Source of the DNA: a virus
Length of the DNA stretch: 64,000 nucleotides
IMG/VR virus record: IMGVR_UViG_3300012347_000302
Span: 20 to 64,019 of that record
Reading direction: 5' to 3' (one strand)
Part shown: one piece after another, positions 40,281 through 55,735 of the stretch
How positions within the stretch are numbered: position 1 is the stretch's first letter
Layout of the letters: each line of letters begins with the position of its first letter
Made by a program: the position numbers and the translations under genes
The notes under the pieces: generated by a model
Databases searched by the model: none
The model's input: the letters and a program-made list of their open reading frames with translations, nothing else
What the model was told of the DNA's origin: nothing

Positions 40281-40483
40281 GTTTCCCTCTTAAAAGTTGG
40301 TAGGCCAGCGTAGTGTGTCCAAGTGGTGTTCGTTGAGTAGCTGCCGATGACGGCAACCCCCAAGCGCTGGTCGATCAGCAGAAGCTTTACCCCACGAGGC
40401 GGAGGGTGCTTCGGGTCTATCGGTGTCCAGTGGTGGAACACGTCCACCAACGCGAGTTTGTCAGATGTGGTCTTGGTTGTCAT
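40277..40483 (-). CDS. Small hypothetical protein (DUF551-like)
   Basis: W.PI....PP.G..LLL...W...THY. Confidence 0.6.
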   Translation of the reverse strand: MTTKTTSDKLALVDVFHHWTPIDPKHPPPRGVKLLLIDQRLGVAVIGSYSTNTTWTHYAGLPTFKRET

Positions 40484-40725: not shown

Positions 40726-40799
40726 TTCCGTTTCTCCCAAAACGCCCAGACATATACGGCTGTGTGAGCAATGCCGATGAGATACATCCACCAAGTCAT
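40722..40799 (-). CDS. 25-aa hydrophobic peptide (not in ORF track)
   Basis: MTWWMYLIGIAHTAVYVWAFWEKRK; ATGA overlaps at both ends. Confidence 0.55.
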   Translation of the reverse strand: MTWWMYLIGIAHTAVYVWAFWEKRK

Positions 40800-41167
40800 G
40801 CGTTCTCCTTGATGCCGTGGGCGGCTTCGATGGCTCGGGCAAAGGCAAGCAGTTGCTCATCAAAAGCACCTGACTGCATAGCGAGGTCGTTGATTTCATC
40901 AATCGTCAGCGGCTTGCGCTGTGCTGGTGGGGATGTGTAAAACTCCGTCCCAACAGGCAGGCTGTCCCACCCTGAACTTGTTACCAGCCCAATACGAGTC
41001 TTTTTTGCCACAGGCTCCTGCTGTGCAAACATGGCTTCAACCTTGGGCGTCTGTTCACGCTCGCAGTACAGATCAACCGTGTGGTCTTTGTCGATGGCGA
41101 CGCTTGCCACCATCATGTCATCACCCCATTGTGTTTTAACAGGGGCTTGTTGCCATTCGAGTTTCAT
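40796..41167 (-). CDS. Hypothetical protein
   Basis: EPVA...Y..PP..KPLT..EI...FARAIEAAHGI pattern common in phages. Confidence 0.7.
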   Translation of the reverse strand: MKLEWQQAPVKTQWGDDMMVASVAIDKDHTVDLYCEREQTPKVEAMFAQQEPVAKKTRIGLVTSSGWDSLPVGTEFYTSPPAQRKPLTIDEINDLAMQSGAFDEQLLAFARAIEAAHGIKENA

Positions 41168-41168
41168 A

Positions 41169-41636
41169 TCAACCCCCAAAGATTTTGCGCAGCTCATCGT
41201 ACAAAGCGCGGGCTTGCTTGATGCTCAGGTTGTTGAGCAAAGTGTCGGCATCCCATGCGGAGTTGATCTGCACCGGCTCGGGGGCTTTCGGCGCTTCGAT
41301 TGGGGCAGGTTTGACTGCTCTTGTGGCAACTGGGGTTGTGCGGGGCAGCGGCTTGTACTCGGGCTGCGCTGCGAACAACGCGCCCTCTGAAGTTTGTCGA
41401 AGATTGCCTCGCGTGACCATCGTAGACAGCAGGGATGTAGACGACCCTTTGGGGATGCCACGCGACATCAACCCAGACACTGCCGCGTCCCGAGTAACAC
41501 CGGGGTTGTCACGCACGTAGTTGAACGTGGCGCGGGTAGAGTTCGACGTGATCGGATGGCCGGTCTCCGCTTTTGTAGGAGCCTCGTCGCTCCATGAGTT
41601 GATGACTTTAGACATTTCAGATTTCAGATCGGGCAT
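41169..41636 (-). CDS. Putative winged-HTH protein
   Basis: FNYVRDNPGVT...S.LL.TMV.RG. Confidence 0.6.
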   Translation of the reverse strand: MPDLKSEMSKVINSWSDEAPTKAETGHPITSNSTRATFNYVRDNPGVTRDAAVSGLMSRGIPKGSSTSLLSTMVTRGNLRQTSEGALFAAQPEYKPLPRTTPVATRAVKPAPIEAPKAPEPVQINSAWDADTLLNNLSIKQARALYDELRKIFGG

Positions 41637-41646
41637 GGTGTTCTCC

Positions 41647-42111
41647 TTATTTTTTGGGCCAGCCGAGCTTGCTCAGATCGGCCATGACGTTTGCGAGTGC
41701 TGGCAGATTCTTGGTAGGCTCTGCCTCGGTGGGGTAATACTTCTTTAACTCGGGGAAGGTGGTCAGTGCTTGCTTGAGCGTGTTGATACCCTCAAAGGCG
41801 GCGGTCAGCTTGCGGTGCATGTCACTGCGCTCTTGCTCCTGTTTCTTGTATGGCTCCGTGATCGCCTTGATCTGTTCCTCTGTCACGTCACCCACCACAA
41901 CGTCTTGCCAGTTGGAATACTGGTTGGTATAGGCGACCGACCTGCGGCGCAGTGCATCTGGCTTGGTCTTGTACAGCTTGCGCACCTCGGGTGACATAGC
42001 CCTGACAACCTCAGCGATGATCGCCTCGGCGCGTTTTACCTTGTCGATGGGTGGGGTGTCCTGCATGATGGCGCGGACAATAGTTTCTTTGTGCAGTTTG
42101 GTCAGTTTCAT
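41647..42111 (-). CDS. Nmad5-like protein (nucleotide modification associated domain 5)
   Basis: MKLTK..KE.IVRAIM.D.P N-terminus; TLKQA....PE..KY.P...NLPALAN..ADLSKLGWPK. Confidence 0.7.
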   Translation of the reverse strand: MKLTKLHKETIVRAIMQDTPPIDKVKRAEAIIAEVVRAMSPEVRKLYKTKPDALRRRSVAYTNQYSNWQDVVVGDVTEEQIKAITEPYKKQEQERSDMHRKLTAAFEGINTLKQALTTFPELKKYYPTEAEPTKNLPALANVMADLSKLGWPKK

Positions 42112-42122
42112 TTCTTTTAACC

Positions 42123-42614
42123 TTAAAACAATTTGGTCTGCGGGGGATTGAGCAGGGAGTCGAGGTCTGGTGGTGTCCAGCCTTCGGGCTTGAGAATCTT
42201 GCCGTCTTCACGGCGGCGCACGGTGCCAGAGTACGGGTCGATCTTGGCCATGTTAGAGCGAACCACTTCGGCCCAGCCTGCGTTCATTGGCCAGCCTCGG
42301 GACAGGCCGTAACCGATCAGCACAACGATCTGATCGAGCACTGCATCGAACTCCTCGATCTCGTCACTGGCGTCCTCTGCATCAAGCATCTCCATGCGCT
42401 CCTCATCGACCAGCTCACGGTACATCTCGGCTTGGAGTTTGTTGGCCTCGTGCGTCGTCTGGCCACACGCTTGCATGAAGAACGCTTGCTCCTCGAACGC
42501 CGTCATAGTAGGTGCCTGTCGCATCTCAAGGCGCTCGCTCAGTGCTTTGATGAGGCCGCTTTGCCCATCGGCTTGTCGGATGAGTTCATCATCTGTTAGG
42601 TTGTCATAAATCAT
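42123..42614 (-). CDS. MazG-like NTP pyrophosphohydrolase (PRA-PH type)
   Basis: LVDEE..E.....EEFDAVLD; EV.RSNMAK; RREDGKILKPEGW.PPDL. Confidence 0.85.
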   Translation of the reverse strand: MIYDNLTDDELIRQADGQSGLIKALSERLEMRQAPTMTAFEEQAFFMQACGQTTHEANKLQAEMYRELVDEERMEMLDAEDASDEIEEFDAVLDQIVVLIGYGLSRGWPMNAGWAEVVRSNMAKIDPYSGTVRRREDGKILKPEGWTPPDLDSLLNPPQTKLF

Positions 42615-42865
42615 GTGAGTTCCAAAAAGGTTAATAGGTTGTTATCGAGATCGGTTGTGAACCACACGATGGCATTGGGTGGCGGTACGTGGACCGTCTT
42701 GAGGTGTGACCCTACGATCGCCGTGTTGACGATGTGCTTGAGCCACTCCGGTCGGCTATCCAACTCGCCACGCCATGAGGTCTCTTCGCCGTCTTGCCAG
42801 CGCTTGAGGTGGTACATGTCGTCACGCTCTTCGTAGCGGTATTCGCGTTCATTGATTGGTGTCAT
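42611..42865 (-). CDS. Hypothetical protein
   Basis: GGAG upstream of ATG 42865; ATGA overlap downstream. Confidence 0.55.
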   Translation of the reverse strand: MTPINEREYRYEERDDMYHLKRWQDGEETSWRGELDSRPEWLKHIVNTAIVGSHLKTVHVPPPNAIVWFTTDLDNNLLTFLELT

Positions 42866-42902
42866 AACTTGATGTTTGTTTCTCCATTGGCGTGATACGT
42901 CT

Positions 42903-43826
42903 TCATCCCTCCACGTCGGCTCCATCATCCCCCACGCCCCAATCGAAGGCATCGAGGATGGCGTCAACGCGTTGCTTGGTTTGGATACGGGTGCTGTGCT
43001 CATCGCGTAATTCTTTCGGTGTGATGCCAGACAATACTTCTTCTAACTTACGTCGTGCTGACTCAAGCTGAGGGTCATTCGTGATGTTCATTGTGGTGAG
43101 CAACTCGCACAGGTCAACTGCGCCAGTCACCGTGGTGTCGTGAAACACTTTCTTCTTGCCGTCCTCGTCAATGGTCAGTCGGTCAGACAGTCGAGTCAGT
43201 GCATCGTGCAGTCGATCCCACGCATCCCGGTTGGCCTGTGCCAGCTTGTTTGTCAACTGGGCTTCGTACTGGGCGATCAGGTCGCGTTGCACTTCGCTCT
43301 CAATATCCAAGCGGAAGTCGCCGCCGGTAGGCAGTGGTGTGAAGCTCGACTCCATGCGAAAACGCAGTGCCACTTGTGAACGGGTCAGGTACTCTTTGCG
43401 ATCGAACAGCGTGCCGAGTTGGAAGGCCGCTGCTGCCACCAGTGTGTCGTACTTGTCGAGGAACGCATCAACCAGTCGCTCGAACTCGTTGCGGTATCGG
43501 TTCATGGTCTGCTGGTACTCAAGCAGTGACGCAGTGGGCAAGAGACGTGCACCTTGGTCATTCCACGGCAGTGTCAGGCGGTAATGCTCGGCGCGTGCTC
43601 GCGCTTGAAACTTGGTCAGGGCATCGAGTTCTTTGCACTCGCTGAACAGGTTCTTGTACACGGATGCGGCACGCTTGGAGTTGGCCCCCTTGTTGGCCAC
43701 GACCTCGGCTTGGGTTGACTTGTCTTGCTTGCGCCCCGAGTACACGGAGATGTGCAGGTCCACCATCATGGCGGAACGAGCGACGCCAGCAACGGCGGAG
43801 GGTTTGATGTCAGTGATGTAGTTCAT
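42903..43826 (-). CDS. DUF3150-like protein
   Basis: LTLPW.D.GARLLP; F...YD; Y.....V..RF......PLP..GDFR; L....N.T.DP.LE. Confidence 0.65.
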   Translation of the reverse strand: MNYITDIKPSAVAGVARSAMMVDLHISVYSGRKQDKSTQAEVVANKGANSKRAASVYKNLFSECKELDALTKFQARARAEHYRLTLPWNDQGARLLPTASLLEYQQTMNRYRNEFERLVDAFLDKYDTLVAAAAFQLGTLFDRKEYLTRSQVALRFRMESSFTPLPTGGDFRLDIESEVQRDLIAQYEAQLTNKLAQANRDAWDRLHDALTRLSDRLTIDEDGKKKVFHDTTVTGAVDLCELLTTMNITNDPQLESARRKLEEVLSGITPKELRDEHSTRIQTKQRVDAILDAFDWGVGDDGADVEG

Positions 43827-43853
43827 GGTGTGTCTTTCTTTTAACCTTAAAAG

Positions 43854-44099
43854 TTATCTGAGTACGCCGCCGATGAGGGCGACCGTTGCGGCTGCTTTAA
43901 GCGCACGTCGGGCTTGTTTAGCCGTCTCGAATACTGTGTTCTCGGGGTAGTCCCCCAGTCCTGACACCCAGTGGCAGTAAACAACAAATCCGGGGCCAAC
44001 CAGCGAGTTTGATTTAGTTGGCTCAACCCAACCTACCTGTACCCAACCTCTCTCGGCTGTGTGCAGATACAGATCGCCGTCTTCCCACTTAGCTCTCAT
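43854..44099 (-). CDS. Small early protein (F-x-T-x-x-x-A family)
   Basis: VFETAKQARRAL; paralogue of 51256-51534. Confidence 0.7.
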   Translation of the reverse strand: MRAKWEDGDLYLHTAERGWVQVGWVEPTKSNSLVGPGFVVYCHWVSGLGDYPENTVFETAKQARRALKAAATVALIGGVLR

Positions 44100-44361
44100 C
44101 GCGGTCTAACTTCATGGCCAGCTTGGTGGCGTCAATAAAGTCGTCGGCAACGAGCGTTACCCCCAGCCACTCATGCGGCTGCTTGACCTCCACAGTGGGG
44201 ATGTAGGCGTTGCTGTATCCTTGCGACCCTTTGTTGTTGCCCACATGCTTCTCGGCCAGTTGTTCGGCGTCCTGCACTGCGGTCATCAGCAGGGCCATCT
44301 GTGTCTCGTTCAAGATCAGCGGCACGCCGCTTACGGATATTTTGTATTTCATGCTGTGCAC
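44089..44361 (-). CDS. Hypothetical protein
   Basis: Overlap-coupled with neighbours; alternative start 44352. Confidence 0.6.
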   Translation of the reverse strand: MHSMKYKISVSGVPLILNETQMALLMTAVQDAEQLAEKHVGNNKGSQGYSNAYIPTVEVKQPHEWLGVTLVADDFIDATKLAMKLDRDES

Positions 44362-44990
44362 TCCTCAATTTCAAAAGTTACGTCGTTACATTCGCACGAC
44401 TCGATGAATGATTCTTCGCTGGTCAGGTGCTCGTACTCGTCACGCAGGTCACGGTAGAGCTGGCGCGATATGTCGCCCACGTAGTCCTGCAACGCTTGCT
44501 CGATACCTGCGCTGAAGAACTGCTCCTCAACCAGCTCGTCCCATGCCTCCTGCTCAAGCGCACTGAAGATGCCGGTTGGGTAAGTATTGCCGACGAGGTT
44601 GCCGTCAAAGTTGACCCGTGCTTGGCAATCCCGACTCCCCGTATTGACCGTGGCGTAGTCGCCGTAGTCTTGTATAGCAAGGTACAGGGCAGGGTACTTC
44701 TCCTCGTAGGTTTGGTCTCCGTCCTTGGTTACTTCCATCCACTCGGCGAGGCTTATGCGCCCCTCGAACGTGGCGTAGTCCCCTTGGCTGTACCACAGGC
44801 TGAACGCTATGCGGTCAACACGCACACCAGCAGGTGCAAGCGTCTCGCGCAGTCGTTCCTCTGCCCAGTCCCACCAGTTGTAGTCAGCGGCGTACTCGGT
44901 CCACTTTAAATACTCCCTTTGGAACCGCTTCAGGTCGGTGCCTCTTAGGGCGGAGGCTGTAATGTTGGTCGGCATCTGGGTACTCTCCAA
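44349..44990 (-). CDS. Acidic hypothetical protein
   Basis: W..W; FSL.YSQGD.A.F.G; LY..L..EYE.LTS.E pattern seen in phage early genes; likely start 44975. Confidence 0.7.
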   Translation of the reverse strand: MESTQMPTNITASALRGTDLKRFQREYLKWTEYAADYNWWDWAEERLRETLAPAGVRVDRIAFSLWYSQGDYATFEGRISLAEWMEVTKDGDQTYEEKYPALYLAIQDYGDYATVNTGSRDCQARVNFDGNLVGNTYPTGIFSALEQEAWDELVEEQFFSAGIEQALQDYVGDISRQLYRDLRDEYEHLTSEESFIESCECNDVTFEIEECTA

Positions 44991-45204
44991 AGTGAATGTT
45001 GATGTGAATCATGGCGATGGCCTTAGCCGCTTCCAGATCGTCCATGCCTTGGGCGATGGGGGCACCGCTTCGGTTGGCTTTATATACGCTCACCTGCCAC
45101 CCGCTATAGTGGGTGACGCGAGCGACCGTCATGTGGCGTGTCTTGTGGGTGAAGGTGTAGGCGTCAAACCCTTCTTCCACCCATTCAAAGTCGTCGATGG
45201 TCAT
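44884..45204 (-). CDS. Small early protein
   Basis: ATGA overlap upstream; DDLEAAKAIA helix; 3' end overlaps the next gene by ~90 nt. Confidence 0.6.
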   Translation of the reverse strand: MTIDDFEWVEEGFDAYTFTHKTRHMTVARVTHYSGWQVSVYKANRSGAPIAQGMDDLEAAKAIAMIHINIHFGEYPDADQHYSLRPKRHRPEAVPKGVFKVDRVRR

Positions 45205-45584
45205 ATGTTGCAGTCAATCGAGCGCCGCACTGCTAGGTAATACTGGTTGTCGTTCCCACTGTGCGTCTCCTCCACATCGTCGCTCTCCTCGCCGATGCGG
45301 ACTCGCTCGGTGCAGTACCCCTCGATCTCCTCGGTGGAGAACGTGTCCAGCATGGACTCAAACATCTTGACGTCTACGTAGCTCGGGTACCACTTCACAC
45401 CCTGCATGTCGAACTTCAACACAAACTCTTTGTCATGCCATGTCATGTACCCGCTGAACTCGTCGGACACATCCTTGAACGTCGTGCCCATCAGCACTTT
45501 GAGTTGTTCGTACGCGGCTTGCTCCCCCAGCTTCGACTGCGCCTCGGGGTAGATGATCGCCATAAAATCTGAGCAGTAACCCAT
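45201..45584 (-). CDS. Acidic hypothetical protein
   Basis: MGY.SD...; VKWY.SY.DV; R.GEE.DD.E. Confidence 0.7.
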   Translation of the reverse strand: MGYCSDFMAIIYPEAQSKLGEQAAYEQLKVLMGTTFKDVSDEFSGYMTWHDKEFVLKFDMQGVKWYPSYVDVKMFESMLDTFSTEEIEGYCTERVRIGEESDDVEETHSGNDNQYYLAVRRSIDCNI

Positions 45585-45585
45585 G

Positions 45586-45891
45586 TCATTTCTCCGTTAA
45601 GACCAGCACAGTGCTGATCGCATCAATCAAGGACTCGTCGGACTGCACGAGGTACACCTCATGTCGGTAGTCATCCGGCCCGTTGGGGTTGTACTTACGT
45701 CGTTGGAACGTGATGTACTTGCCATTCAGCGCCTCCGTTATGGTGAAGGTGCGGTTGAGGTTGTGCACCGAAGGGCCTTCGGTTACGGCTAGCGAGGGTT
45801 GCTCCCCCGCATCCCGCAGCTTCTTCTTTTGCTGGGCTCGATCCCACGAAGCTTTAAATATACGGTCAATGAAATCTGTAATCAGGCTCAT
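45586..45891 (-). CDS. Hypothetical protein
   Basis: ATG overlaps the upstream TGA. Confidence 0.65.
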   Translation of the reverse strand: MSLITDFIDRIFKASWDRAQQKKKLRDAGEQPSLAVTEGPSVHNLNRTFTITEALNGKYITFQRRKYNPNGPDDYRHEVYLVQSDESLIDAISTVLVLTEK

Positions 45892-46019
45892 CACGGTCTC
45901 CAGAAAAATAAATCCAACAACAAAACGACCAAGCAAGTGGAGAACACCACTGCTTCGATCACGTCAATCAACGGTCTGCGCCATGTCGGCACAGGCTTAG
46001 CGGGTCCGGTGTATTTCAT
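45891..46019 (-). CDS. 42-aa membrane peptide (not in ORF track)
   Basis: MKYTG...AVVFSTCLVVLLLDLFFWRP; starts 3 nt after a palindrome. Confidence 0.65.
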   Translation of the reverse strand: MKYTGPAKPVPTWRRPLIDVIEAVVFSTCLVVLLLDLFFWRP

Positions 46020-46030
46020 TTCTTTTAACC

Positions 46031-46297
46031 TTAAATGTTTTTGGCAAGTGCGATGCCAGCCAGCAGTCGGCCGACTTCCTTGGCTTGTTTGATGGTGGGG
46101 AAGTGGTCGACCTCATCCCACTCCTCGTCAGCGCCGGCCCATATCTCCAATCGGAACGGCCCCGTGGGGTCTTTGAACTCGATGCACGCCCAGCATAAAT
46201 CCCTGTCCCCGAGCGGGGTCTCCGACAAGAACGTCCGGTATAGCGCGCCGCCGTAAGTGAGCCTGACTGGCTCCCACCGCTTGCGTAGCCGCCTCAC
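46031..46297 (-). CDS. Small early protein (F-x-T-x-x-x-A family)
   Basis: HFPTIKQAKEVG; its stop codon forms part of a palindrome. Confidence 0.65.
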   Translation of the reverse strand: MRRLRKRWEPVRLTYGGALYRTFLSETPLGDRDLCWACIEFKDPTGPFRLEIWAGADEEWDEVDHFPTIKQAKEVGRLLAGIALAKNI

Positions 46298-47487
46298 ACT
46301 TCCACCTTAATGGTCGTACCGAAGGGTGCCTTCAGGTCAGAGGTAACAGCCCACAGTGTGGGCACATCAGTGCGGCCCCAGTCGCCGACATAACCGTCAG
46401 TGAACTGCACAATGGCTTGCGGGTTGATGTTCTTGTCACGCAGGTAGTCGAACAGCACAGAACCGTCTGTGCCGCCACCGCCTTTGATCTTGAGTTCCTG
46501 AACAGCGAACTGTCCGTCATCGAATGTCTGGTGCCCTGCAACTCGTGTGTCCCAATAGATCACATGCACCTTGCTTGGCTTGACGTCCTCGATGATGGTC
46601 TTGATCTCAGACACGAAGCGTGTCATCTCGTTGCCACCGAAGATCGAGCCGGATGTGTCGAAGCCGATCACGAGTTCCGTCATAGTTGTGCCGACCATCG
46701 AGGGCATGTAAATGTCCATGCCGAGGTAGCGGCGGTTGGGCTTGCGCCATGAAGACTCGTCACGACCTGCGCATGTCTCGGTGATGAACTCGCGCAACAC
46801 TTTCTTCCAGTCGATGGCGGGGGCCATGAGGTCGCCGAACAAGCCGTCCGATTGGCCAGCACCCTTACCTGCCAGCTTCTTGCGCATGATCTCGCCCTGA
46901 CGGATGGCACGTTGAATCTCGTCGGCTTGTTGCTGTTCCTTGGCAGGGTCGTTACCTGCCTCGTTGCCTGACCAGTCGTGCTCGTCAAGCTCGCCGTTCT
47001 CGTCGCCGCCGTTGCCGCTACGGCCCTCACCGCTTGCGTCGTCTTGTTGCATCTGTTGCTTGAGGTCAGCGTAGATCATGGCGACAGACCAGCCACGATA
47101 CTTGGGTTCGACAGGCACACCGATCTTGGGCATCTTGACGAAGCCTTCGCCGTCATCGGTATCGTGCAGTGTCAGGTTCACGAAGAAGTCAGCAGCCACG
47201 TTAGCCAGCCGTGCGTTCTCCTCGTGCAGTGCACGCCATGTCACCATGTGGCGATAGGCTTTGTGCGTTGCCTCGTGCAGTACGAGGAAGCGCAGCTCCG
47301 GGTCAGTGGGCATATGCTCAGCGATGAACTCCGGGTTGTAGATGACGTTCCAGCCGTCCGTTGCGGCCGTTGGTACATCGGTGTTGACAGTTACTTTGCC
47401 ACAGGCAAGGATGCCTGAGTAAGCGCAGAACTTCTTGTGTTGCATGATGGCAATGTGGGCGCGTTTAATTCGATCTGGGACATTCAT
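46294..47487 (-). CDS. Metallopeptidase-like (HExxH) + vWA domain protein (DUF2201-like)
   Basis: AATDG; LHEATH; N.A.D...N; DW...L; DTSGS MIDAS; GGGGTD; FTDG. Confidence 0.88.
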   Translation of the reverse strand: MNVPDRIKRAHIAIMQHKKFCAYSGILACGKVTVNTDVPTAATDGWNVIYNPEFIAEHMPTDPELRFLVLHEATHKAYRHMVTWRALHEENARLANVAADFFVNLTLHDTDDGEGFVKMPKIGVPVEPKYRGWSVAMIYADLKQQMQQDDASGEGRSGNGGDENGELDEHDWSGNEAGNDPAKEQQQADEIQRAIRQGEIMRKKLAGKGAGQSDGLFGDLMAPAIDWKKVLREFITETCAGRDESSWRKPNRRYLGMDIYMPSMVGTTMTELVIGFDTSGSIFGGNEMTRFVSEIKTIIEDVKPSKVHVIYWDTRVAGHQTFDDGQFAVQELKIKGGGGTDGSVLFDYLRDKNINPQAIVQFTDGYVGDWGRTDVPTLWAVTSDLKAPFGTTIKVEV

Positions 47488-47512
47488 GATTGATTTCCTT
47501 TAAGGTTAAAAG

Positions 47513-47797
47513 TTATTTGAGGAACGTGTCCTCGTGTGAGTAGTTCGATGCCTTGCGGGGGTTGAGCCTGTACTCAATGAGCTTGGACACCAGCATGCGG
47601 TCACGCAGTTTGCGAACGTAGTACCCGACCACTTTGCGTTCAAACCAGTTGAACTTGAACGGCACCTCGTGCGGTTGCATGGTTTCGGTGTTGATGATGA
47701 GAAACGACTTGGCGTGCTTGATCGCTGAGTGTTTGATGATCCAGTCGTCCTCCTTGAGTGCATGGACCACATGCTTGGTGAACTCTCTCATTGCCAC
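47513..47797 (-). CDS. Hypothetical protein
   Basis: 94 aa, coupled with the upstream gene. Confidence 0.6.
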   Translation of the reverse strand: MAMREFTKHVVHALKEDDWIIKHSAIKHAKSFLIINTETMQPHEVPFKFNWFERKVVGYYVRKLRDRMLVSKLIEYRLNPRKASNYSHEDTFLK

Positions 47798-47958
47798 TCC
47801 CTGCGCTTGGCCAGCAGTGCGCTTTGCAGCTTCTCCATGTCGCGGCTATCGACATAGTTCTTGCTCGGTGCATAGGCTTTGCCGATGCGGTTGGGATGCC
47901 AGTCGTGCTTGATCTTCACGAGGGTCTTGCCGTTGGATTGTTGTTCGATGATTAGCAT
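47788..47958 (-). CDS. Hypothetical protein (56 aa)
   Basis: AGGA upstream of ATG 47958. Confidence 0.55.
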   Translation of the reverse strand: MLIIEQQSNGKTLVKIKHDWHPNRIGKAYAPSKNYVDSRDMEKLQSALLAKRREWQ

Positions 47959-48185
47959 TTGATTTCCTGTGGGTATCCTAAAAGTTTCATGAGGCCGATG
48001 CACTCGGCCTTGGTTATGTTGGTTGCGATGGTCTGCGCTGCTGAGATACCGAGGGGGTCACGGTCCCAGCTATACACATCCAAAGACCAGCGCCACGGTG
48101 CCCACCACAATCGGTGCGGCGCAACAGCGAAGATTTCATGCGATATGGGGAACAAGTACATGTCCCCCGAGCGAAGGGGTTTCAA
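47952..48185 (-). CDS. Small early protein
   Basis: Trp-rich; follows a palindrome; start uncertain (48185 or 48161). Confidence 0.55.
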   Translation of the reverse strand: MKPLRSGDMYLFPISHEIFAVAPHRLWWAPWRWSLDVYSWDRDPLGISAAQTIATNITKAECIGLMKLLGYPQEIKC

Positions 48186-48194
48186 CTTTTAACC

Positions 48195-49262
48195 TTAAAA
48201 GTATTTGCCCAGCTTGGCTGCTGCTGCGGTGAACTTGCGGTTCTTGCATGCCATGCCTACCTTGTTGCGGTTGGACGCGAGGGAGGTAACAAAGAGAGCG
48301 TGTGCCTCGAATGATTGGTCAGCCATACGCTCGGCGTACTCCATCACAGGGTCGAGGTTGTCTGCGTCCACTCGGCCAGCCAGCATGAACGCAAGGATGA
48401 ACAGCGCACCGACACTCTCGGGCACCTTGGTCTTGGTCGGGGTCTTCACGATGTTCTCGAACAGCGGCAACTGGTCAGCCAGATTCACAAGGGCTTCCAT
48501 GTCACGGGCAGCAGCCTCGCCGACAGTACCTGCAAGGGCTGGAATCAACGCAGTGCCGAGCACGCTGCGCTGCTTGATGATGTTCGATGCCTTGGTCAGC
48601 GAACGAGGTGAGCAGAAGGCCCGCACGTTGCCCGTCATGGGGTTGAAGATGTAGGGGTTCTTGTCTTTCTTGTCGAGGTCTGCATAGCAGTCGAAGACCT
48701 GCGGGTACTGCTTGGCAAACGCCATCACCTCGGGGGCTACGTTGTGGCCCGATGCCCAGTCAATCCACTGGTCGGCCGATGGGTTGGCCACAGTCACGAC
48801 AGTCATACGGTTGAACGCATGGGCTGGGATGTTGTCACCCACGCCGTCAGTGTCGAGGTTGGTTGTGCCGAACACAATGGAGCCGGTAGGCAGGGGCACA
48901 TCACCGATGCGACCTTCGAGAATCACAGGCAACAGCATGTTGAGCACAGGGCGTGACGCTTTACCCAACTCGTCGAGCATCAGCACGACAGGGCGTGTCT
49001 GGCCCTTGCCTACACCGAAGCGAGCGTTGGGTGCGTAGTTGGTGACCATTGTGTCTTTGTCGATGACTGGCATACCCAGATCGCCGAGGTCGAGGTTGGC
49101 TACGTCGATGTAGCAGATTTGATAGTCAGGCAGTTCACGTTCGAGTGTCTGCAAGATGGAAGACTTGCCGATGCCGGGCTGGCCGCGCAAGAGCAGGGTG
49201 TTTGTAGTGCCGACGTTGCGGATGAGAGTTGCAGCTTGGTTCAGGTTGATAGACATAGACAT
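48195..49262 (-). CDS. MoxR-like AAA+ ATPase
   Basis: GQPGIGKS Walker A; LMLDELGK Walker B; GTTN sensor; NRM; SPRS. Confidence 0.88.
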   Translation of the reverse strand: MSMSINLNQAATLIRNVGTTNTLLLRGQPGIGKSSILQTLERELPDYQICYIDVANLDLGDLGMPVIDKDTMVTNYAPNARFGVGKGQTRPVVLMLDELGKASRPVLNMLLPVILEGRIGDVPLPTGSIVFGTTNLDTDGVGDNIPAHAFNRMTVVTVANPSADQWIDWASGHNVAPEVMAFAKQYPQVFDCYADLDKKDKNPYIFNPMTGNVRAFCSPRSLTKASNIIKQRSVLGTALIPALAGTVGEAAARDMEALVNLADQLPLFENIVKTPTKTKVPESVGALFILAFMLAGRVDADNLDPVMEYAERMADQSFEAHALFVTSLASNRNKVGMACKNRKFTAAAAKLGKYF

Positions 49263-49318
49263 GATGATTTCCTTGGATTGAAAAGTTTTAAGATTAAAGG
49301 TTTGAGCTTTCGCTCGGC

Positions 49319-50056
49319 TTACAAGACTGTCTCGTCGGTATCGACGAGCTTGGTCATTGTTCGGGTTTGGCTTGCAATGAGTGACCTCAGTGCAGCTTTG
49401 TGATCGGGGTGGCTGGGCCTGCCTGTGTGTCGTGCATGGTATGTGCTGTACTTCGCAAGGGCCACAAGTTCGGGCCATTCGTTGGCGTGACAGTCAGAGG
49501 TCATGATCTTTCGTGTCAATGTTGCGAGCCAGCTCTGTGTAGGAACCTCGGCTGCTTGGTACAGAACAGGGAACATACCGACGAACCCAGACTCTTTAAT
49601 GTCTTGGCGAAACTCAGCGGTTTCTTCACGGTCGGTGCGCTTGGCTGAGAACTGCTTGGCTTCGCCCATCAGCTTGCCCTCGACGTCGAACGCCATGCCG
49701 TCATAGTACCTGTACGTCTTGCCGTTGACACGGATGCCGGTCTGCGAGTACCCACCCTTACGCACGCTGAACAGATAGCCCATGCCGAAGAAGCTAGTCA
49801 GTGCGTCGTTCATTGCACTGCGTGTAGTAGGTGACGTATGCCAGCCATTGGTGTTGAGCATGATGCTCCCATCCTCATAAGCGGTGATGAGGTCTGCGCT
49901 GTGCATACGCACCAGCATCTGCCCACCGTTGCCCTGCACTACACGGAAGTGTGTCTTGGCCCGGCGTGTCTTGTCTGCGGGTGCGTCGCCTTTGAATCGG
50001 CCACGCTTGTACACATGGCGTTCGAGGTGCAGTTTGAGTTTGGTGTGTGCTGTCAT
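49319..50056 (-). CDS. Hypothetical protein (245 aa)
   Basis: L.TNGW..SPTT...MN; follows a palindrome. Confidence 0.7.
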   Translation of the reverse strand: MTAHTKLKLHLERHVYKRGRFKGDAPADKTRRAKTHFRVVQGNGGQMLVRMHSADLITAYEDGSIMLNTNGWHTSPTTRSAMNDALTSFFGMGYLFSVRKGGYSQTGIRVNGKTYRYYDGMAFDVEGKLMGEAKQFSAKRTDREETAEFRQDIKESGFVGMFPVLYQAAEVPTQSWLATLTRKIMTSDCHANEWPELVALAKYSTYHARHTGRPSHPDHKAALRSLIASQTRTMTKLVDTDETVL

Positions 50057-50082
50057 GATGTACTTTCTTTTAAGGTTAAAAC

Positions 50083-50355
50083 TCATGTCGCGGGGTGCGT
50101 CATCTTCCCGATAGCATGGGTAACGAGCGCCCAATCCACGGCGTCTCGCAAGGCTTCGAGCTGTTCGACAGTGCTTATACTCACTGTACACGCAGGAGTT
50201 CCTGCTGATCCGTCCTCCGCTTCGCCCCCGCCGTAGAAGATGGTGAGGTGCGGTCGCCATGAACTGTGCCCGTCGGTTGCCTCCAAAGTTACTCGCCGAG
50301 CTATGACTGGCATGTTTTCGTGTATGAGAAATGCCTTTGCCTCATAAACTTGCAT
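50083..50355 (-). CDS. Hypothetical protein
   Basis: Overlap-coupled; ends at a palindrome. Confidence 0.55.
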   Translation of the reverse strand: MQVYEAKAFLIHENMPVIARRVTLEATDGHSSWRPHLTIFYGGGEAEDGSAGTPACTVSISTVEQLEALRDAVDWALVTHAIGKMTHPAT

Positions 50356-50587
50356 CTGTCTTCTCCTTGGGTTTGTCGAGCTTGACGAGTTCGCCAGCAG
50401 CTACGCTGAAGGCATGTGATACGGCCAGCAGATCGTTCAGTTCTTTCTGTGCACTCAACAGTACGTTGACTGCTGTCTCTTTGGCCATGCCCTGCATGAG
50501 CAGGGTGGCTATCTCAGGCTTGCGTTGCATCGACTTGCGCAGCAGTCGGATGGCTTGCTGCTCGTCGAGCATGAGTTTGATCGTCAT
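50342..50587 (-). CDS. Helical hypothetical protein (81 aa)
   Basis: ATG 2 nt after a palindrome. Confidence 0.6.
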   Translation of the reverse strand: MTIKLMLDEQQAIRLLRKSMQRKPEIATLLMQGMAKETAVNVLLSAQKELNDLLAVSHAFSVAAGELVKLDKPKEKTDASL

Positions 50588-50604
50588 ACTTTTAACCTTA
50601 AAAG

Positions 50605-50817
50605 TTACAGGCTTCCGCCCTTGTGTGATGAGTTGAGTCCCTTGAGTAGGGACAGATCGGTGAACAACATGTAGTTGCTCTTGGGCATGGGTGCCACTGT
50701 GTGCTTGACCTTCTTGGCTTGCTTCTCGCCGCAGGTCAGGCATGTGCGATACCCGAGCTGGTATCGTTGCATTGGAATGTCCTCGATGTAGCACGAGGGG
50801 CATAGGGGTTCAGTCAT
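50605..50817 (-). CDS. C4 zinc-finger protein, DksA/TraR-like
   Basis: CPSC-YIEDIPMQR...-CLTC. Confidence 0.6.
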   Translation of the reverse strand: MTEPLCPSCYIEDIPMQRYQLGYRTCLTCGEKQAKKVKHTVAPMPKSNYMLFTDLSLLKGLNSSHKGGSL

Positions 50818-51014
50818 TGGTTCTCCACGGTGGTGATGAATTGCAGGAAGTCTTTGGCGGATTCTCTGTTGTCGAACTCACCACGGACGATGGGGTTGTC
50901 GATGGTTCCCGCAGTGCGGGCGTACCACATTTGGCTGTCCGACTCGTAGCCAATCCAGCCGAGCACACGGTTACGGTTAAACAGCACAGAGCCTTTCCAT
51001 TCGGGTTCGGTCAT
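50814..51014 (-). CDS. Small early protein (F-x-T-x-x-x-A family)
   Basis: GEFDNRESAKDFL. Confidence 0.7.
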   Translation of the reverse strand: MTEPEWKGSVLFNRNRVLGWIGYESDSQMWYARTAGTIDNPIVRGEFDNRESAKDFLQFITTVENQ

Positions 51015-51259
51015 GATTGGCTTCCTTCGATTACTCTGAGCACAGCGAGTGCTTGGGTTAGGGTTTTGAACTGTTGCAATGGGCGCTCACATTCTTTGGT
51101 GTCGTCATCAAGCCAGTCACACAGGTGGTAGTCAGGCACGAAGGGGAATCGCGCAACTACATACCCACATTCAGCCTTGCTGCTGTCGATGTGCCAGACA
51201 ACGCAGTCATCCCACACTGACCGTGTGTACCCGTCTCTCTTTACGTGGTCGAGCATCAT
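51011..51259 (-). CDS. Small early protein (F-x-T-x-x-x-A family)
   Basis: QFKTLTQALAVL. Confidence 0.65.
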   Translation of the reverse strand: MMLDHVKRDGYTRSVWDDCVVWHIDSSKAECGYVVARFPFVPDYHLCDWLDDDTKECERPLQQFKTLTQALAVLRVIEGSQS

Positions 51260-51534
51260 TTGCGCCCCCTGAACCCGCCGATAACGGCGACCATTGATGC
51301 GTCGATCAGGGCTTGCAGGGCTTCGTGCTCCGTGTCGAAGATGTGCTTCTCAGGGTAGACGGGCGGCGACAGCCACGGTCGTTGGTATGAATCGTTGGGC
51401 ATGTCAGTCATCCATGAGCACAGGCAGTAGAACTGCGTGTGGTTGGTGTTCTGTACCCAGCCCATCTTGAACGGCTTGGTGCCGTTCTCCATGTCGCACA
51501 GCAGGTCGTGTGTGTTTACGAAGTAGAGCTTCAT
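51256..51534 (-). CDS. Small early protein (F-x-T-x-x-x-A family)
   Basis: IFDTEHEALQAL; ATG 2 nt after a palindrome. Confidence 0.7.
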   Translation of the reverse strand: MKLYFVNTHDLLCDMENGTKPFKMGWVQNTNHTQFYCLCSWMTDMPNDSYQRPWLSPPVYPEKHIFDTEHEALQALIDASMVAVIGGFRGRK

Positions 51535-51568
51535 TGTTTTAACCTTAAAAGTTTCAACGCGCCGCGCG

Positions 51569-51793
51569 TCATAGTTGTCGGCTTGCCGTGATGGTGACGA
51601 GGAAGTCTTGGGCTTCTTCGAGCGTTGGCATGACACCCAGAAACTCACGGGCGTAGGGGTTCTTGCTGGGGTTCTCGCCGTACACGCTGACCGCATCGGG
51701 CTTGACCTCATACACAAGGCCAACTGATTTGCCGTTTACTACCAGCCAGTGTTGTCGTGGTATGCGGGCGTCGGCTATCCATCGGTAGTTCAT
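51569..51793 (-). CDS. Small early protein (F-x-T-x-x-x-A family)
   Basis: GVMPTLEEAQDFL. Confidence 0.7.
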   Translation of the reverse strand: MNYRWIADARIPRQHWLVVNGKSVGLVYEVKPDAVSVYGENPSKNPYAREFLGVMPTLEEAQDFLVTITASRQL

Positions 51794-52083
51794 ATCTGTA
51801 TTCCTTGTATCTTGAGGACTGCAACGAGTTCGGGGACTTTGCGTTCGACTGCACGTTTGGCCGCTTCGAGCGTGGGGTACTTGTGCTTGAGGATGTATGC
51901 GTTGGGCGGCACAAGATCGTTGAAGTGGTAGCTGAGGTTGACTCGATAGTGGTTCTTGGGGTTGCCCGGGATGTGATACACACCTGCCACGCCGATGGAG
52001 CGTGACAACTCCACGGTGTTCTCGTCGTACCTGTAGGTGTAGTGCCCATTCCTCAGAGGGCCGAACCATTCAAAGGTTGTCAT
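51790..52083 (-). CDS. Small early protein (F-x-T-x-x-x-A family)
   Basis: KYPTLEAAKRAV. Confidence 0.7.
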   Translation of the reverse strand: MTTFEWFGPLRNGHYTYRYDENTVELSRSIGVAGVYHIPGNPKNHYRVNLSYHFNDLVPPNAYILKHKYPTLEAAKRAVERKVPELVAVLKIQGIQI

Positions 52084-52337
52084 TCGTCGTCTCCAGTGTT
52101 TGCACAGTGCCTGATCCACATGGCGGGCAGGTGGCGTTCGCAGAAGTTCTTGGCACCTCGCTTGGTCTTGAACTTCTCGCCATCGGGGAACTCGTTGTCC
52201 TTCATGTCCATGAACTTGCATATGTAGTGGGCGTTGCGCCGGATGAACGCGAGGAGGTGCCAGTCATCCGCAGTGACCTGCACCCGCAGGTCAAGGTCGT
52301 CTGGGTAGCGGGCGTCGTAGTCCCATTTGTAGTTCAT
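52080..52337 (-). CDS. Small early protein (F-x-T-x-x-x-A family)
   Basis: KFKTKRGAKNFC. Confidence 0.7.
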   Translation of the reverse strand: MNYKWDYDARYPDDLDLRVQVTADDWHLLAFIRRNAHYICKFMDMKDNEFPDGEKFKTKRGAKNFCERHLPAMWIRHCANTGDDE

Positions 52338-52495
52338 GATTGTCCCCCTTCAGGCATACCGCAGTCGGACAGGAACGCAACGAGTGCGTCCTCTGGGGTG
52401 TGGCCCAGCAATTCGGCAATGGCCGTCCAGTCTTGCGAGTCAATGTCGAGTTTCATCTGTTCGATCACAGCGTCAATCAATGCGGCGTCTTTCAT
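52334..52495 (-). CDS. Small acidic protein (53 aa)
   Basis: AAAGGA RBS just after a palindrome; LID.VIEQ...D....D.TAI.ELL. Confidence 0.65.
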   Translation of the reverse strand: MKDAALIDAVIEQMKLDIDSQDWTAIAELLGHTPEDALVAFLSDCGMPEGGQS

Positions 52496-52517
52496 GGCGA
52501 TTCCTTTAAGCTTAAAA

Positions 52518-52913
52518 GATATGCGGTATTGCACATCACAAAGGGCACAGGTATTGCCTATGCCCTTCAGGATGCCACCTCGTGAGAGGTGTCCTTGGAC
52601 TGCGATAGTGTTTGTCGGGCTGGCATATCGGGGTTGGTTACCCTTCCAGCGCCCTAACGCTCATACATAATTTCTTAGAGAGGAGCGCACACAGTTAGGC
52701 AGTGGGTGAACGTATTGCATGAAGCTATCGTCGCTGGTGACTCTGGCCTATGGCGACTACACCACTTCATACCCCCGGCTATACGGGGACGCCTTCTCGT
52801 CTGTGGGGAGTGATCTCATATCCATGTCGGGGATGCTTGGTGGCTGTCCCGCTGTCTGGCCTAATTCCTACTACACGACTTTTGCTTGTGCAACGGCGGC
52901 TCGATGGGAAATC
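52518..52913 (-). ncRNA. Candidate structured non-coding RNA/long leader
   Basis: No sense-strand ORF of 60 aa or more; several hairpins; three GCAATAC copies; flanked by two palindromes; downstream of a strong promoter. Confidence 0.35.
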
Positions 52914-53028
52914 CTTTAACCTTAAAAGTTATAGAAAATCCTAACTGTCTCTGGGTTGTTAAGGAGCATGAGCCGCACATGAATAAGGCTGGCTGGGAAT
53001 TGGAAACGATCTCCAACTCGATATATGT

Positions 53029-53057
53029 ATTCTACCACAAATACCTATATATGTCAA
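53029..53057 (-). promoter_or_regulatory. Strong sigma70 early promoter
   Basis: On - strand TTGACA-17 nt-TAGAAT with extended -10 TG. Confidence 0.85.
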
Positions 53058-53074
53058 GTCTTTTCGGTGGGGGT

Positions 53075-53100
53075 TGGGGGGCAGGTTTGCCCCCCATTTT
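53075..53100 (+). terminator. 9-bp GC hairpin with U-tract on the + strand
   Basis: TGGGGGGCA-GGTT-TGCCCCCCA-TTTT; at the 3' end of the - strand gene 53104-53349. Confidence 0.55.
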
Positions 53101-53103
53101 GGC

Positions 53104-53349
53104 TTAGCTGTTGATGATGGCTTCGATGTCGGCTTCACTCATGGCATAGATCACTGCAATGGATTCGATGGATTTGCCGGTTGACCTGACGTGCTTGATG
53201 ATCTTGGCCCGCTGGTCGTAGTCGGTCTTGAGGTATTCCTGCAAGGCTCTGACCACGGCAGCATCAACGCTGCCTGCACGGGCAATGAGTTCATCGGCCA
53301 CATCAAGCGGTAGGTCAAGCTCAACGGTGTGGAATTCGGGTGTTGTCAT
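53104..53349 (-). CDS. Putative DNA-binding protein (RHH-like + HTH-like)
   Basis: TVELDLPLDVADEL...VVRALQEYL; KSIESIAVIYAMSEADIEAII. Confidence 0.6.
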   Translation of the reverse strand: MTTPEFHTVELDLPLDVADELIARAGSVDAAVVRALQEYLKTDYDQRAKIIKHVRSTGKSIESIAVIYAMSEADIEAIINS

Positions 53350-53369
53350 AGTTGTGGTCTCCTGTTGGT

Positions 53370-54221
53370 TCAGATGGCGAAGTCTGGGTTGTTGGGGTCG
53401 AACATGGACACGTCCACCTTGGCTGGGTCAGGGATTTTGATCGGCTTGGGTTGTTGGAACAGCTCAGGGTTTCGCATGGATGGTGGGATGACTGCCAGTT
53501 TACGGGGTGCAGGGGTGGAAACTTCTAAGCTTAAAACTTCCTGTGGTTGGGATGCGGCAATGGATGCGTTCGCCTTATCGCCGATGGTGGGTTTGGCTGG
53601 CAGGTTCGCTTTGTATGCAGCGTACAGGTCGCGCACTCGCTGCACATCCAACTCATAGGTGTTCGCGGCAACGGCAATGGTCATGCCCGCGTCGAGTTCG
53701 TCATACATACGCATGAGGTTGGGCTGGCCGTGAGACTGGCGGGGGTTGGGCTTAGAGCCGCGTCCACGGCGTGGAGTATCCCCGCTGGCTACACGATGCA
53801 GGGCTACGATCTGCCCAACGCGCACAATGGATATGCCGAACTCGGATGCAACCTCGGCTTGTGTGGCCCCGGCTTTGATTCGCGCGTACAGATCGGCGTC
53901 GCGCTGCTCGTTGATCTTGGGTCGGCCTACGGTGCCACGGGTCATGCTGAGCCGGTCGGCCTCGGTGGATAGCAGTTGGATGGCAGAGCGCAGAGCCTTG
54001 GCAGGGGATGTGTCCAGTTGTTTGGCCAGCTCCTGCAGGGTGTTATACGTGGCAGGGCCCATGCCGTTGATAAGCTGCAGGCCAGCGCGGGTTGCGCTTT
54101 CTACGGTGCCTTCAAAGGTTTCGGTGATGCGGTGGGCTACGGCAAGGGGGATTTCGATGGTGATGGAACGCATGGCGGGGTCTGGAGTGGGTGCGGTTGT
54201 TGGGTGGGTGCTGTCGGTCAT
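53370..54221 (-). CDS. Multi-domain DNA-binding regulator (RHH-like + two HTH)
   Basis: GATQAEVASEFGISIVRVGQIV; GMTIAVAANTYELDVQRVRDLY; N-terminus similar to 53104-53349. Confidence 0.7.
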   Translation of the reverse strand: MTDSTHPTTAPTPDPAMRSITIEIPLAVAHRITETFEGTVESATRAGLQLINGMGPATYNTLQELAKQLDTSPAKALRSAIQLLSTEADRLSMTRGTVGRPKINEQRDADLYARIKAGATQAEVASEFGISIVRVGQIVALHRVASGDTPRRGRGSKPNPRQSHGQPNLMRMYDELDAGMTIAVAANTYELDVQRVRDLYAAYKANLPAKPTIGDKANASIAASQPQEVLSLEVSTPAPRKLAVIPPSMRNPELFQQPKPIKIPDPAKVDVSMFDPNNPDFAI

Positions 54222-54560
54222 AGTAGTCCTTGGGGGTGGGGTTGATGAAGGGGTCAGTGTATCACAGGTTAGGGCTTATGGGTAGTTGTGAAACAGATGT
54301 ACAGACGGGGGGAGTTTTGCTACGGGGCGGGGGATCAATATGTAATCGCTGGAAGCCCCTCGTGGCTTGGGGGTTGGCCGGAAGGGTAGCTATTTGATGA
54401 TACGAGTTACGGCGATACAGGGTGTCCAGAGCCCGCCAGAGACCCCCTGCCCGGACTAAACTTTTAACGTTAAAACTTCCGCAAGTGAGCCAAAGACCTT
54501 TCCTAGCTTTTCATACCTAAAAGCCTGTACATCAGTAACAATAAACAAATAAATATCTAA

Positions 54561-54577
54561 TCTCTCTCTCTCTCTCT
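54561..54577. repeat. (TC)8T microsatellite in non-coding control region
   Basis: Read directly from the sequence. Confidence 0.9.
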
Positions 54578-54893
54578 GCCGTAAGTGCTTGATTTCATTG
54601 GATATTTTCCCTTAGCTATTTTGCTTTAGTCGTGATACGGGGGTTTTGTAACGAGCCCTGATTTTCTGTACGGCTGTTCCACAACAACCAATATCTTTTA
54701 ACCTTAAAACTCTCCGGGGGTCTTGCGCGCGGCGTGTGCTCGGCGCCTGCACCTCATGCCATCGCCCTGCCGCTTGGCCGCCTCTCCCTCACGCACGGCT
54801 GCGCACACTCGCACTCACACTCTCCCTCACGGTCGCACTACTATGACGGTTCCCCACAGACGTGGGGAACGTGGGCTCCAAAAAGTACAGGCG

Positions 54894-54918
54894 AAAAAAA
54901 GCCCGGCCGGAGCCGGGC
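54894..54918 (-). terminator. Terminator after first early gene
   Basis: On - strand GCCCGGC-TCCG-GCCGGGC-TTTTTTT. Confidence 0.85.
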
Positions 54919-54942
54919 GGTAAGGGCTTGCGCCCTTGGGTC

Positions 54943-55473
54943 TCACTTGCTGAGCACGGTCTCCTCAAAACCATCCAAGCGATCTTGGCACAAGTCAACC
55001 AAGTCGGCGGCAAAATCGAGCAAGCCAAGCAAGCGGGCTTGCGCCATTGCTTTAGATAACGTTTTGTCCAAGTCGGTGCGACTTGTCGATTGCACGGCGC
55101 CGGATGCCTTGGCGCTTGTCTTGGCTTCGCCGGTTTCGCCCTTTTCTTTTTTGTTGTTCAGGTCACGCTTGAATTCAATGCCTTGTTCGAAGGCGATCCA
55201 AAATGCAGATTGATACGATGCGCCGGATGATTTGCTAATGAAGCCCTTTTCAACGATGGCATCGAACATGGCTTTGATCTGGCCGCGTGCTGGGTTAGTC
55301 TTTGCGTTACCCTTCAAGAACTCAGCCTTGGGTTTGTCACACGCAATGAACATGGCATCGAGCGCACCTTGGATGGCCTTGTCTTGGCTAGTGCGAGCCT
55401 TGGCGATGGCCTTGGCTTCGCCCTCAAACGAACGGACAACGGCGGCGATAAGGGAGGCATTGATAACGGACAT
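54943..55473 (-). CDS. First gene of the - arm, unknown function (176 aa)
   Basis: AAGGA RBS; own promoter and terminator. Confidence 0.75.
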   Translation of the reverse strand: MSVINASLIAAVVRSFEGEAKAIAKARTSQDKAIQGALDAMFIACDKPKAEFLKGNAKTNPARGQIKAMFDAIVEKGFISKSSGASYQSAFWIAFEQGIEFKRDLNNKKEKGETGEAKTSAKASGAVQSTSRTDLDKTLSKAMAQARLLGLLDFAADLVDLCQDRLDGFEETVLSK

Positions 55474-55520
55474 GATGTTTTCCTTTAGGTTTTTCTCAGT
55501 CACCATCGACTGAGGACTCA

Positions 55521-55549
55521 ACTGTAACCCAACGCATAGGTAATGTCAA
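55521..55549 (-). promoter_or_regulatory. Sigma70 promoter of the first early gene
   Basis: On - strand TTGACA-17 nt-TACAGT. Confidence 0.75.
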
Positions 55550-55562
55550 CCCCATTACCTAT
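55536..55562. promoter_or_regulatory. Operator-like inverted repeat overlapping the -35 box
   Basis: ATAGGTAATG-N7-CATTACCTAT, perfect 10-bp arms. Confidence 0.7.
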
Positions 55563-55735
55563 TGTTTAACCTTAAAAGTCCGGGGTCTGACCCCACCGCA
55601 CCCGGGGGCCCACAACGGCAAACTGGGACTCCTCCCGTCCGCTTACGCTGAGTGGCGTATCCTCCACCACCCCTAAAAAACAAAACTATATATAACTAAT
55701 TTCAAATTTAACTCGACGACATCAATGTCGTCGAC

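Follow-up and report, generated by a model that had tools for sequence, protein, structure and literature searches.

A structured RNA with a boxA-like element at the head of the early genes of uncultivated phages

Gene arrangement and promoter of the early region

The stretch of DNA analysed here (64,000 nt, hereafter referred to as the window) corresponds to approximately the whole of one complete 64.2-kb phage record of IMG/VR. Structural and packaging genes were encoded on the plus strand; the early and replication genes occupied the minus strand between about 55.6 kb and 28.6 kb. Within the latter region, positions 52518-52913 had been singled out in the original prediction as free of open reading frames, and this was confirmed: stops were present in all three minus-strand frames, the longest internal ORF comprised 31 aa (52770-52675), and a 51-aa ORF starting with TTG (53016-52861) overlapped only the 5' edge of the segment. 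The next gene started with an ATG at 52495, and its AAAGGA Shine-Dalgarno sequence was located within a palindrome (52503..52516, minus strand), which is a copy of the dispersed motif described below.

A near-consensus sigma-70 promoter was identified on the minus strand at 53029..53057, consisting of a -35 element TTGACA (53057-53052), a 17-nt spacer with TG upstream of the -10 element, and the -10 element TAGAAT (53034-53029). From the position of this promoter, transcription was predicted to start at approximately 53024-53022. Two good sigma-70 promoters were present within 40-56.5 kb, both on the minus strand (55549-55521, 10/12 matches; 53057-53029, 11/12 matches). The latter was the best match in this range, and the earlier statement that the segment directly follows the strongest early promoter was thus upheld. 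In a simple scan, the whole early region was served by only these two sigma-70-like promoters. No minus-strand intrinsic terminator was detected by a simple scan from 53029 to 40000, which covers about 13 kb of early genes.

Upstream of the promoter, a GC-rich hairpin (53075..53096) was found between the promoter and a gene for an 81-aa protein. It reads as a terminator on the plus strand only, with the T-run on the plus side, and the changes in its stem were compensatory in a homologous locus (L002). This hairpin may halt transcription that runs antisense into the regulator genes. Another stretch without ORFs, about 720 nt long (54222-54942, minus strand), had the terminator of the first early gene on one side and a gene for a 283-aa protein on the other. 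Two palindromes were found in it, together with a GU/GA-rich run and a (GA)n tract, and it showed 68-78% nucleotide identity in three homologous loci (L002, L004, and L007); an island of about 50 nt was common even to two distant ones (L030 and L034). This stretch could be a further regulatory or non-coding RNA region.

As judged from the comparisons below (alignments, covariation, and the lack of an Rfam match), the gene-free stretch is the core of a structured minus-strand non-coding RNA of about 510 nt, which extends from approximately 53024 to 52517 (52517..53024). The unit is therefore larger than the extent of about 400 nt given originally, the first ~110 nt being located outside 52518-52913, and it is not a small RNA as had been supposed, because it is about 510 nt long and has multiple domains. 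The two palindromes said to bracket the segment were real (52926-52913 and 52516-52503). Since the RNA begins at the predicted transcription start (~53024), the 5' palindrome falls within it.

Homologues and covariation of the RNA

Thirteen homologues were identified in contigs of uncultivated freshwater phages, representing four sub-lineages; together with the analysed phage, the family had 14 members. The loci were retrieved by alignment of the 81-aa upstream protein and by two RNA-pattern scans, and L002 was found through the upstream 283-aa protein (51% amino-acid identity), with the ORF-free stretch in synteny. Nine loci were close homologues (L002, L004, L013, L007, L009, L010, L015, L008, and L018), L036 was a homologue truncated at the 5' end, and L021, L030, and L034 were three distant variants. 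Nine of the 15 pattern matches from the first scan and five of the eight new loci from the second were chance matches in coding DNA and were discarded. Exact-word scans (27-mer and 22-mer) detected one close relative and nothing else. Among isolate phages, no match was obtained by blastn against INPHARED, and the nearest isolates by DNA polymerase were only 34-37% identical. Searches of GTDB representative genomes with the RNA pattern and the flanking protein detected no prophage or host copy, and a literature search found no paper describing such an RNA. For the upstream 81-aa gene, 67 clusters of proteins were present in public data.

All homologues retained the promoter and the RNA, the latter always at the head of the early genes, while the downstream genes differed among members. 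In L002, the promoter, the leader, and the first ~140 nt past the palindrome were more than 90% identical to those of the analysed phage; the substitutions lacked 3-nt periodicity, and one 1-nt indel was present. Where the flanking 81-aa protein was only 48-53% identical, the RNA could still be aligned at about 70% identity. In L021, the upstream genes were wholly replaced and the RNA was retained; segments of the RNA survive such replacement of flanking genes.

Single-sequence folding was only modestly unusual compared with shuffled sequences (z = -1.8 for 396 nt; z = -3.15 for 531 nt, leader included). With an alignment of ten sequences, RNAalifold predicted more than 110 pairs, 43 of which showed compensatory changes. 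In the 136-pair predicted structure, 93.5% of cells were paired. Changes on both sides were found in 49 of the 136 pairs, compared with 22±2.9 in column shuffles (0/500) and 6-10 in slid controls with partners shifted by 1-3 columns. The covariation analysis of homologues that the original prediction had called for thus yielded a signal above both types of control, and we regard the comparative evidence for structure as decisive. The RNA was assigned to the minus-strand transcript because many G.U pairs, some of them invariant or frequent as in hairpin K and domain F, would turn into A-C mismatches if the plus strand were transcribed. When covarying non-nested stacks, which would indicate pseudoknots, were searched for, only an extension of helix C was obtained.

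From the 5' end (all positions on the minus strand), the predicted fold begins with hairpin H1 (52997..53019; helix 1), whose AUCGU loop was nearly invariant and which precedes boxA in the manner of rrn leaders, at a boxB-like position. It is followed by hairpin H2 (GCCAGCC/GCGGC; 52971..52994; helix 2), which was 100% paired and had both-side changes in three of six pairs. The core opens with domain A-C (52790..52898; helices 7-13), in which a long-range helix (CGCC/GGCG) encloses hairpin B (52893-52882) and the long helix C (52879-52870 with 52811-52799). Helix A was invariant among members in the alignment, and a change from AGU/ACU to ACU/AGU was seen in the domain. Lineage-specific insertions were found at helix tips; the variable tip of helix C takes up to about 90 nt (L010, L036, L008, and L018). 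Hairpin E (CCCG-UAUAGC-CGGG; 52774..52787; helix 14) contained UGGG/CCCA instead of CCCG/CGGG in L030 and L034. Domain F (52717..52773; helix 15) consists of an outer helix, a loop-E-like internal loop (GG(A/U)GUA / GA(A/U)AG), and a variable inner hairpin, and was retained in the distant variants L021, L030, and L034.

The 3' core domain (52599..52703; helices 18-23) is predicted to comprise a 5-bp helix (ACUGC/GCAGU), an internal loop, a helix of 3-4 bp, and a junction with hairpins H (52688-52657) and I (52653-52617). In L021, the 5-bp helix was fully swapped (ACUAC/GUAGU to GGUGC/GCACC), and the flanking unpaired bases were unchanged. The internal loop (YUAAAU / UAUC) was conserved, and the 3-4-bp helix showed four pair types. 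The GAAA tetraloop of hairpin H (52674-52671) was invariant and, like the loop-E-like motif, belonged to the conserved elements. Within 52693-52715, the family hairpin AUGC-AGAC-GCAU is replaced by an unpaired AUAC-GUUC-ACCC in the analysed phage, and the conserved internal loop CUAAAU reads CUAACU.

The 3' end of the RNA contains hairpins J (CACCUC-UCAC-GAGGUG; 52576..52591; helix 24), K (52533..52575; helix 25), and L (GAUGUGC-AAUACC-GCAUAUC; 52517..52537). Hairpin K, with about 19 bp, is rich in G.U pairs and is not followed by a U-tract; it is a candidate RNase III or other processing site. In hairpin L, GCAAU.CCGC was kept in most members. These three hairpins (52591-52576, 52575-52533, and 52537-52517) had been quoted in the original prediction, and all of them recurred in the homologues with compensatory changes. 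The plus-strand repeat GTATTGC, also pointed out there, was indeed present at 52526, 52551, and 52712, but the triple repeat was not conserved. GCAAU was kept in the relatives at two of the three sites, and the third corresponded to a loop peculiar to this phage; the repeat of GCAATAC is largely a coincidence.

Rfam 15 was searched by cmscan in E-value mode with the analysed phage and eight homologue loci, and only chance-level matches were obtained, indicating no known family. The unmatched families included GOLLD, ROOL, OLE, HEARO, RNase P, tmRNA, 6S, and riboswitches. No tRNA or tmRNA was detected by ARAGORN. The original suggestion of an antitoxin mimic or an anti-CRISPR RNA gained no ground, as nothing was found pointing in that direction: there were no repeat units and no Rfam match.

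Several other candidates were rejected. A coding region was discarded because every frame contained stops, no ORF was conserved, codon periodicity was lacking, and 1-nt indels occurred. A plus-strand RNA was ruled out by the G.U pairs, despite the plus-strand terminator at 53075-53096. A template repeat of a diversity-generating retroelement was dismissed, as no second copy was present in the genome. A terminator-type attenuator or riboswitch was likewise set aside, with no minus-strand terminator at 40000-53029 and no U-tract after hairpin K.

In summary of the comparative data, a structured and conserved minus-strand non-coding RNA is established by comparison, as the original proposal of a candidate non-coding RNA had anticipated. 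Its status as a new structured family absent from Rfam 15, with 14 members, about 50 covarying pairs, and conserved putative tertiary motifs, is well supported.

The boxA-like element and the dispersed palindromes

A boxA-like element (TGCTCCTTAACAA; 52956..52968, minus strand) was located in the same alignment column in all 14 RNAs. The gamma-proteobacterial boxA consensus is GYTCTTTAANA (11 nt; PMC5725501). The corresponding sequence of the analysed phage (GCTCCTTAACA; 52966-52956) had one mismatch, C at position 5, relative to this consensus, which may not be that of the host. The consensus was matched perfectly in six members (L004, L013, L007, L015, L036, and L030); seven members, including the analysed phage, deviated at position 5 only, and L034 at position 2. 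Alignment columns 73-86 read TG(C/T)TC-N-TTAA(C/T)AA in nearly all members. When the 13-mer TGCTCTTTAACAA, boxA as read from the E. coli rrnH leader, was used for comparison, the site was the only one in 64 kb within one mismatch, and the match of the L030 RNA to this leader extended over boxA and TTTATCAG.

The element was positioned about 57-68 nt past the predicted start, on the sense strand as set by the G.U pairs. Hairpins preceded it, which is the order of rrn leaders (boxB-boxA) and not that of lambda. From its sequence, position, and conservation, we consider the assignment as boxA to be probable. In the RNAalifold structure, some of the boxA bases pair with GUUAGGA further downstream (helix 4, weak covariation), and this pairing could occlude boxA. 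The original prediction of a nut/put-like leader accordingly held in part: a consensus-matching boxA was present about 57 nt from the predicted start in all 14 members, but the 400-nt core is far above the size of the known nut or put elements. boxA elements have been described in front of long non-coding RNAs, 16S rRNA and CRISPR arrays among them; there, processivity is increased by the Nus complex, which may also block Rho (PMC7862264). Antitermination leaves the 400-nt core unexplained, because boxA alone needs only about 12 nt.

Downstream of boxA, hairpin H4 (52911..52930, minus strand; helix 6) is the 5' bracketing palindrome and contains the dispersed palindrome of the lineage. The dispersed motif (A)CTTTTAA-NN-TTAAAAG (14-16 nt) had 26 matches on both strands, against 0.18 expected. 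It occurred about 12-15 times at gene junctions, with about a dozen minus-strand copies just upstream of early genes; the junction copies ranged over 42114-55576 on the minus strand. H4 always contained the dispersed palindrome of its own lineage, and three types were distinguished: ACTTTTAA-NN-TTAAAAGT in most members (the TTTTAA-NN-TTAAAA version), CGTCTAA-NN-TTAGACG in L021 (11 copies in 12.4 kb), and ACTTATAA-NN-TTATAAGT in L030 and L034 (the CTTATAA-NN-TTATAAG version). In L009 and L010, the palindrome centre was CA in all copies, including H4. The concerted change of H4 and the dispersed palindromes implies a common lineage-specific recogniser or process, and ties the RNA to a genome-wide, lineage-specific recognition system. 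The orientation of the palindrome on the sense strand was biased (centre GG 35 vs CC 17), and arm mismatches showed no clear G.U bias (24 vs 16). By a reading of coordinates, a second palindrome directly followed the RNA in nine of the 13 full-length members; the RNA core thus occupies a palindrome-bounded slot, as protein genes do.

The regulator-like genes upstream also differed with palindrome type. Those of type 1 encoded a 283-aa protein with a weak HTH match and the 81-aa protein, L030 had a single HTH protein of about 150 aa, and L021 had unrelated proteins of 316 aa and 90 aa. In the analysed phage, the 81-aa protein (53104-53349, minus strand) was labelled 'Mor family' by JGI and had no Pfam match at E up to 0.01, and the 283-aa protein (53370-54221, minus strand) had only sub-threshold matches to HTH and sigma-70 region 4. 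Both proteins start with a similar E-x-x-L-P-x-x-V-A motif, and the ~150-aa protein of L030 unites this motif with an HTH.

Possible roles of the RNA and relation to known systems

We propose, at about even chances, that the RNA heads the main early transcription unit, built like an rRNA operon, in which boxA would load Nus factors ahead of a folded RNA. Host RNA polymerase would initiate at the near-consensus sigma-70 promoter, and the first ~110 nt of the transcript would carry two hairpins, boxA, and a phage-specific hairpin. The putative boxA would recruit host NusB and NusE (S10) and, with them, NusA and NusG (and SuhB). The polymerase could thereby withstand Rho, both on the long untranslated RNA and on the terminator-free early operon that follows. 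As no minus-strand terminator was detected between 53029 and 40000, the same polymerase would run on into the early operon. The next ~400 nt are predicted to fold compactly into a multi-domain structure, whose features are long-range helices, a GAAA tetraloop, an internal loop resembling a receptor, and a loop-E-like motif.

This core occupies a slot like that of a gene, with a copy of the dispersed palindrome at either end, and would most likely be a stable product excised from the transcript. Candidate processing sites are the palindrome hairpins and/or the 19-bp hairpin K, and the excised core would then act as an RNA or an RNA-protein particle early in infection. We prefer the core as a product over the core as part of a cis-acting leader because of its cassette layout, size, and putative tertiary motifs. 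It is tentatively proposed that the ~400-nt core represents a new class of compact phage RNA with a function in trans, made like rRNA and excised at lineage-specific hairpins. Such a function might be that of an RNA-protein particle, a host-factor decoy, a ribozyme, or a self-assembling RNA.

A purely cis-acting leader is a possible alternative, to which we assign a minor but real share of the probability. All 510 nt would then remain with or signal to the transcribing polymerase, by modifying it directly as in HK022 put or by sensing a host or phage factor as in riboswitches, and would control the early operon, a free RNA product being of no importance. The RNA immediately follows the promoter and precedes the first early gene, no terminator lying in between; it contains boxA; and in L002, L030, and L034, about 20 nt lie between the end of hairpin K and the first Shine-Dalgarno sequence. 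Moreover, the core is set off from the downstream genes neither by a terminator nor by a proven cleavage site. However, known cis antitermination RNAs are 70-120 nt long, and we know of no nut or put element near the size of the 400-nt core. Neither an alternative terminator/antiterminator pairing nor one sequestering the Shine-Dalgarno sequence was seen, and the palindrome-bounded slot of the core, as read from the coordinates, is gene-like.

A nut site of the lambda N type appears improbable. According to this explanation, boxA and H4, the latter as an analogue of boxB, would bind a phage antiterminator that also recognises the identical hairpins at gene junctions. The position of H4 about 25 nt after boxA, its agreement with the palindrome of the lineage in all three types, even down to the central dinucleotide, and the difference in upstream regulator-like genes between palindrome types are consistent with such a protein. 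No N-like arginine-rich protein was identified, however, and the occurrence of the palindrome in both orientations without clear G.U bias would fit recognition of DNA by a dimer equally well. Further, the 400-nt core is not accounted for.

A diverged group I intron or another known large ribozyme is very unlikely. The sequences ACUAC-CUAAAUG and CUAUC-GUAGU-CCAAG around the 5-bp helix resemble what we take to be the R/S elements of group I introns around P7, and a GNRA loop and a receptor-like loop are also present. Against this, no Rfam match was obtained at E up to 10 for the analysed phage and E up to 5 for the eight homologue loci, and no extra covarying stacks were detected. In addition, the topology of a P3-P7 pseudoknot is excluded, as the strand following the P7-like helix belongs to a nested helix showing four pair types (helix 19), and the RNA starts at the promoter and is not inserted in any gene, with differing genes downstream. 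A DNA-level element, such as an origin or an operator cluster, or unrecognised short coding genes, might be suspected in an ORF-poor region with palindromes, but is equally hard to credit in view of the compensatory changes and strand-specific G.U pairs, which favour RNA, and of substitutions without 3-nt periodicity, 1-nt indels, and no ORF conserved across members.

Most of what is known of antitermination in phages comes from lambda N/Q and HK022 put. The latter is an RNA of about 70 nt with two stem-loops that requires no boxA or Nus factors and acts on the beta-prime subunit of RNA polymerase. Like HK022 put and EAR, the RNA described here is a structured RNA located right after an early promoter that could act on its own transcribing polymerase; unlike put, it is about seven times larger and contains boxA. 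With lambda nut, it has in common a boxA near the start of an early operon and a phage-specific hairpin downstream. In contrast to lambda nut, the hairpin recurs about 12-15 times at gene junctions, no N-like protein was identified, boxA and the hairpin are separated by about 25 nt instead of about 8 nt, and a large structured core is attached.

Non-coding transcripts led by boxA have been reported for CRISPR arrays (Stringer et al. 2020, as cited in PMC7862264). These resemble the present RNA in having boxA before a long untranslated RNA, presumably blocking Rho, and differ from it in that the latter is a single folded RNA with no repeat array, and its transcript continues into mRNA. In its size class (400-800 nt), its many covarying helices, and its signatures of tertiary motifs, the RNA is comparable to GOLLD, ROOL, OLE, and raiA, all of which are also of unknown function; an association with phages and lake samples is shared with GOLLD. 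It is distinguished from these RNAs by the lack of an Rfam match and by its place as a promoter-proximal leader of an early operon with boxA. Large structured RNAs whose function is unknown are few, and several of them proved to be mechanistically novel. The core may turn out to be a new RNA class.

In rrn antitermination leaders, boxB-boxA-boxC act with NusA/B/E/G, SuhB, and S4. The leader found here differs from these in being phage-borne and in its ~400-nt structured RNA, which is not rRNA and is followed by protein genes; there is also no clear boxC, and a leader-trailer helix was not found. Leaders headed by boxA and nut sites of phages were already known, and what is new, as far as the sequences tell, is the fusion of a consensus-grade rrn-type boxA to a covarying RNA of about 400 nt in a phage leader. 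If the proposed reading is correct, a phage early operon with an rrn-type boxA and no recognisable N protein would make direct use of the host machinery for rRNA transcription. The likeness to rrn leaders lies in a strong sigma-70 promoter, one or more hairpins, a consensus-matching boxA, and a long, highly structured untranslated RNA after it, and the locus would then be a phage 'pseudo-rRNA operon', in which a strong promoter and a boxA leader recruit the Nus antitermination/chaperone complex.
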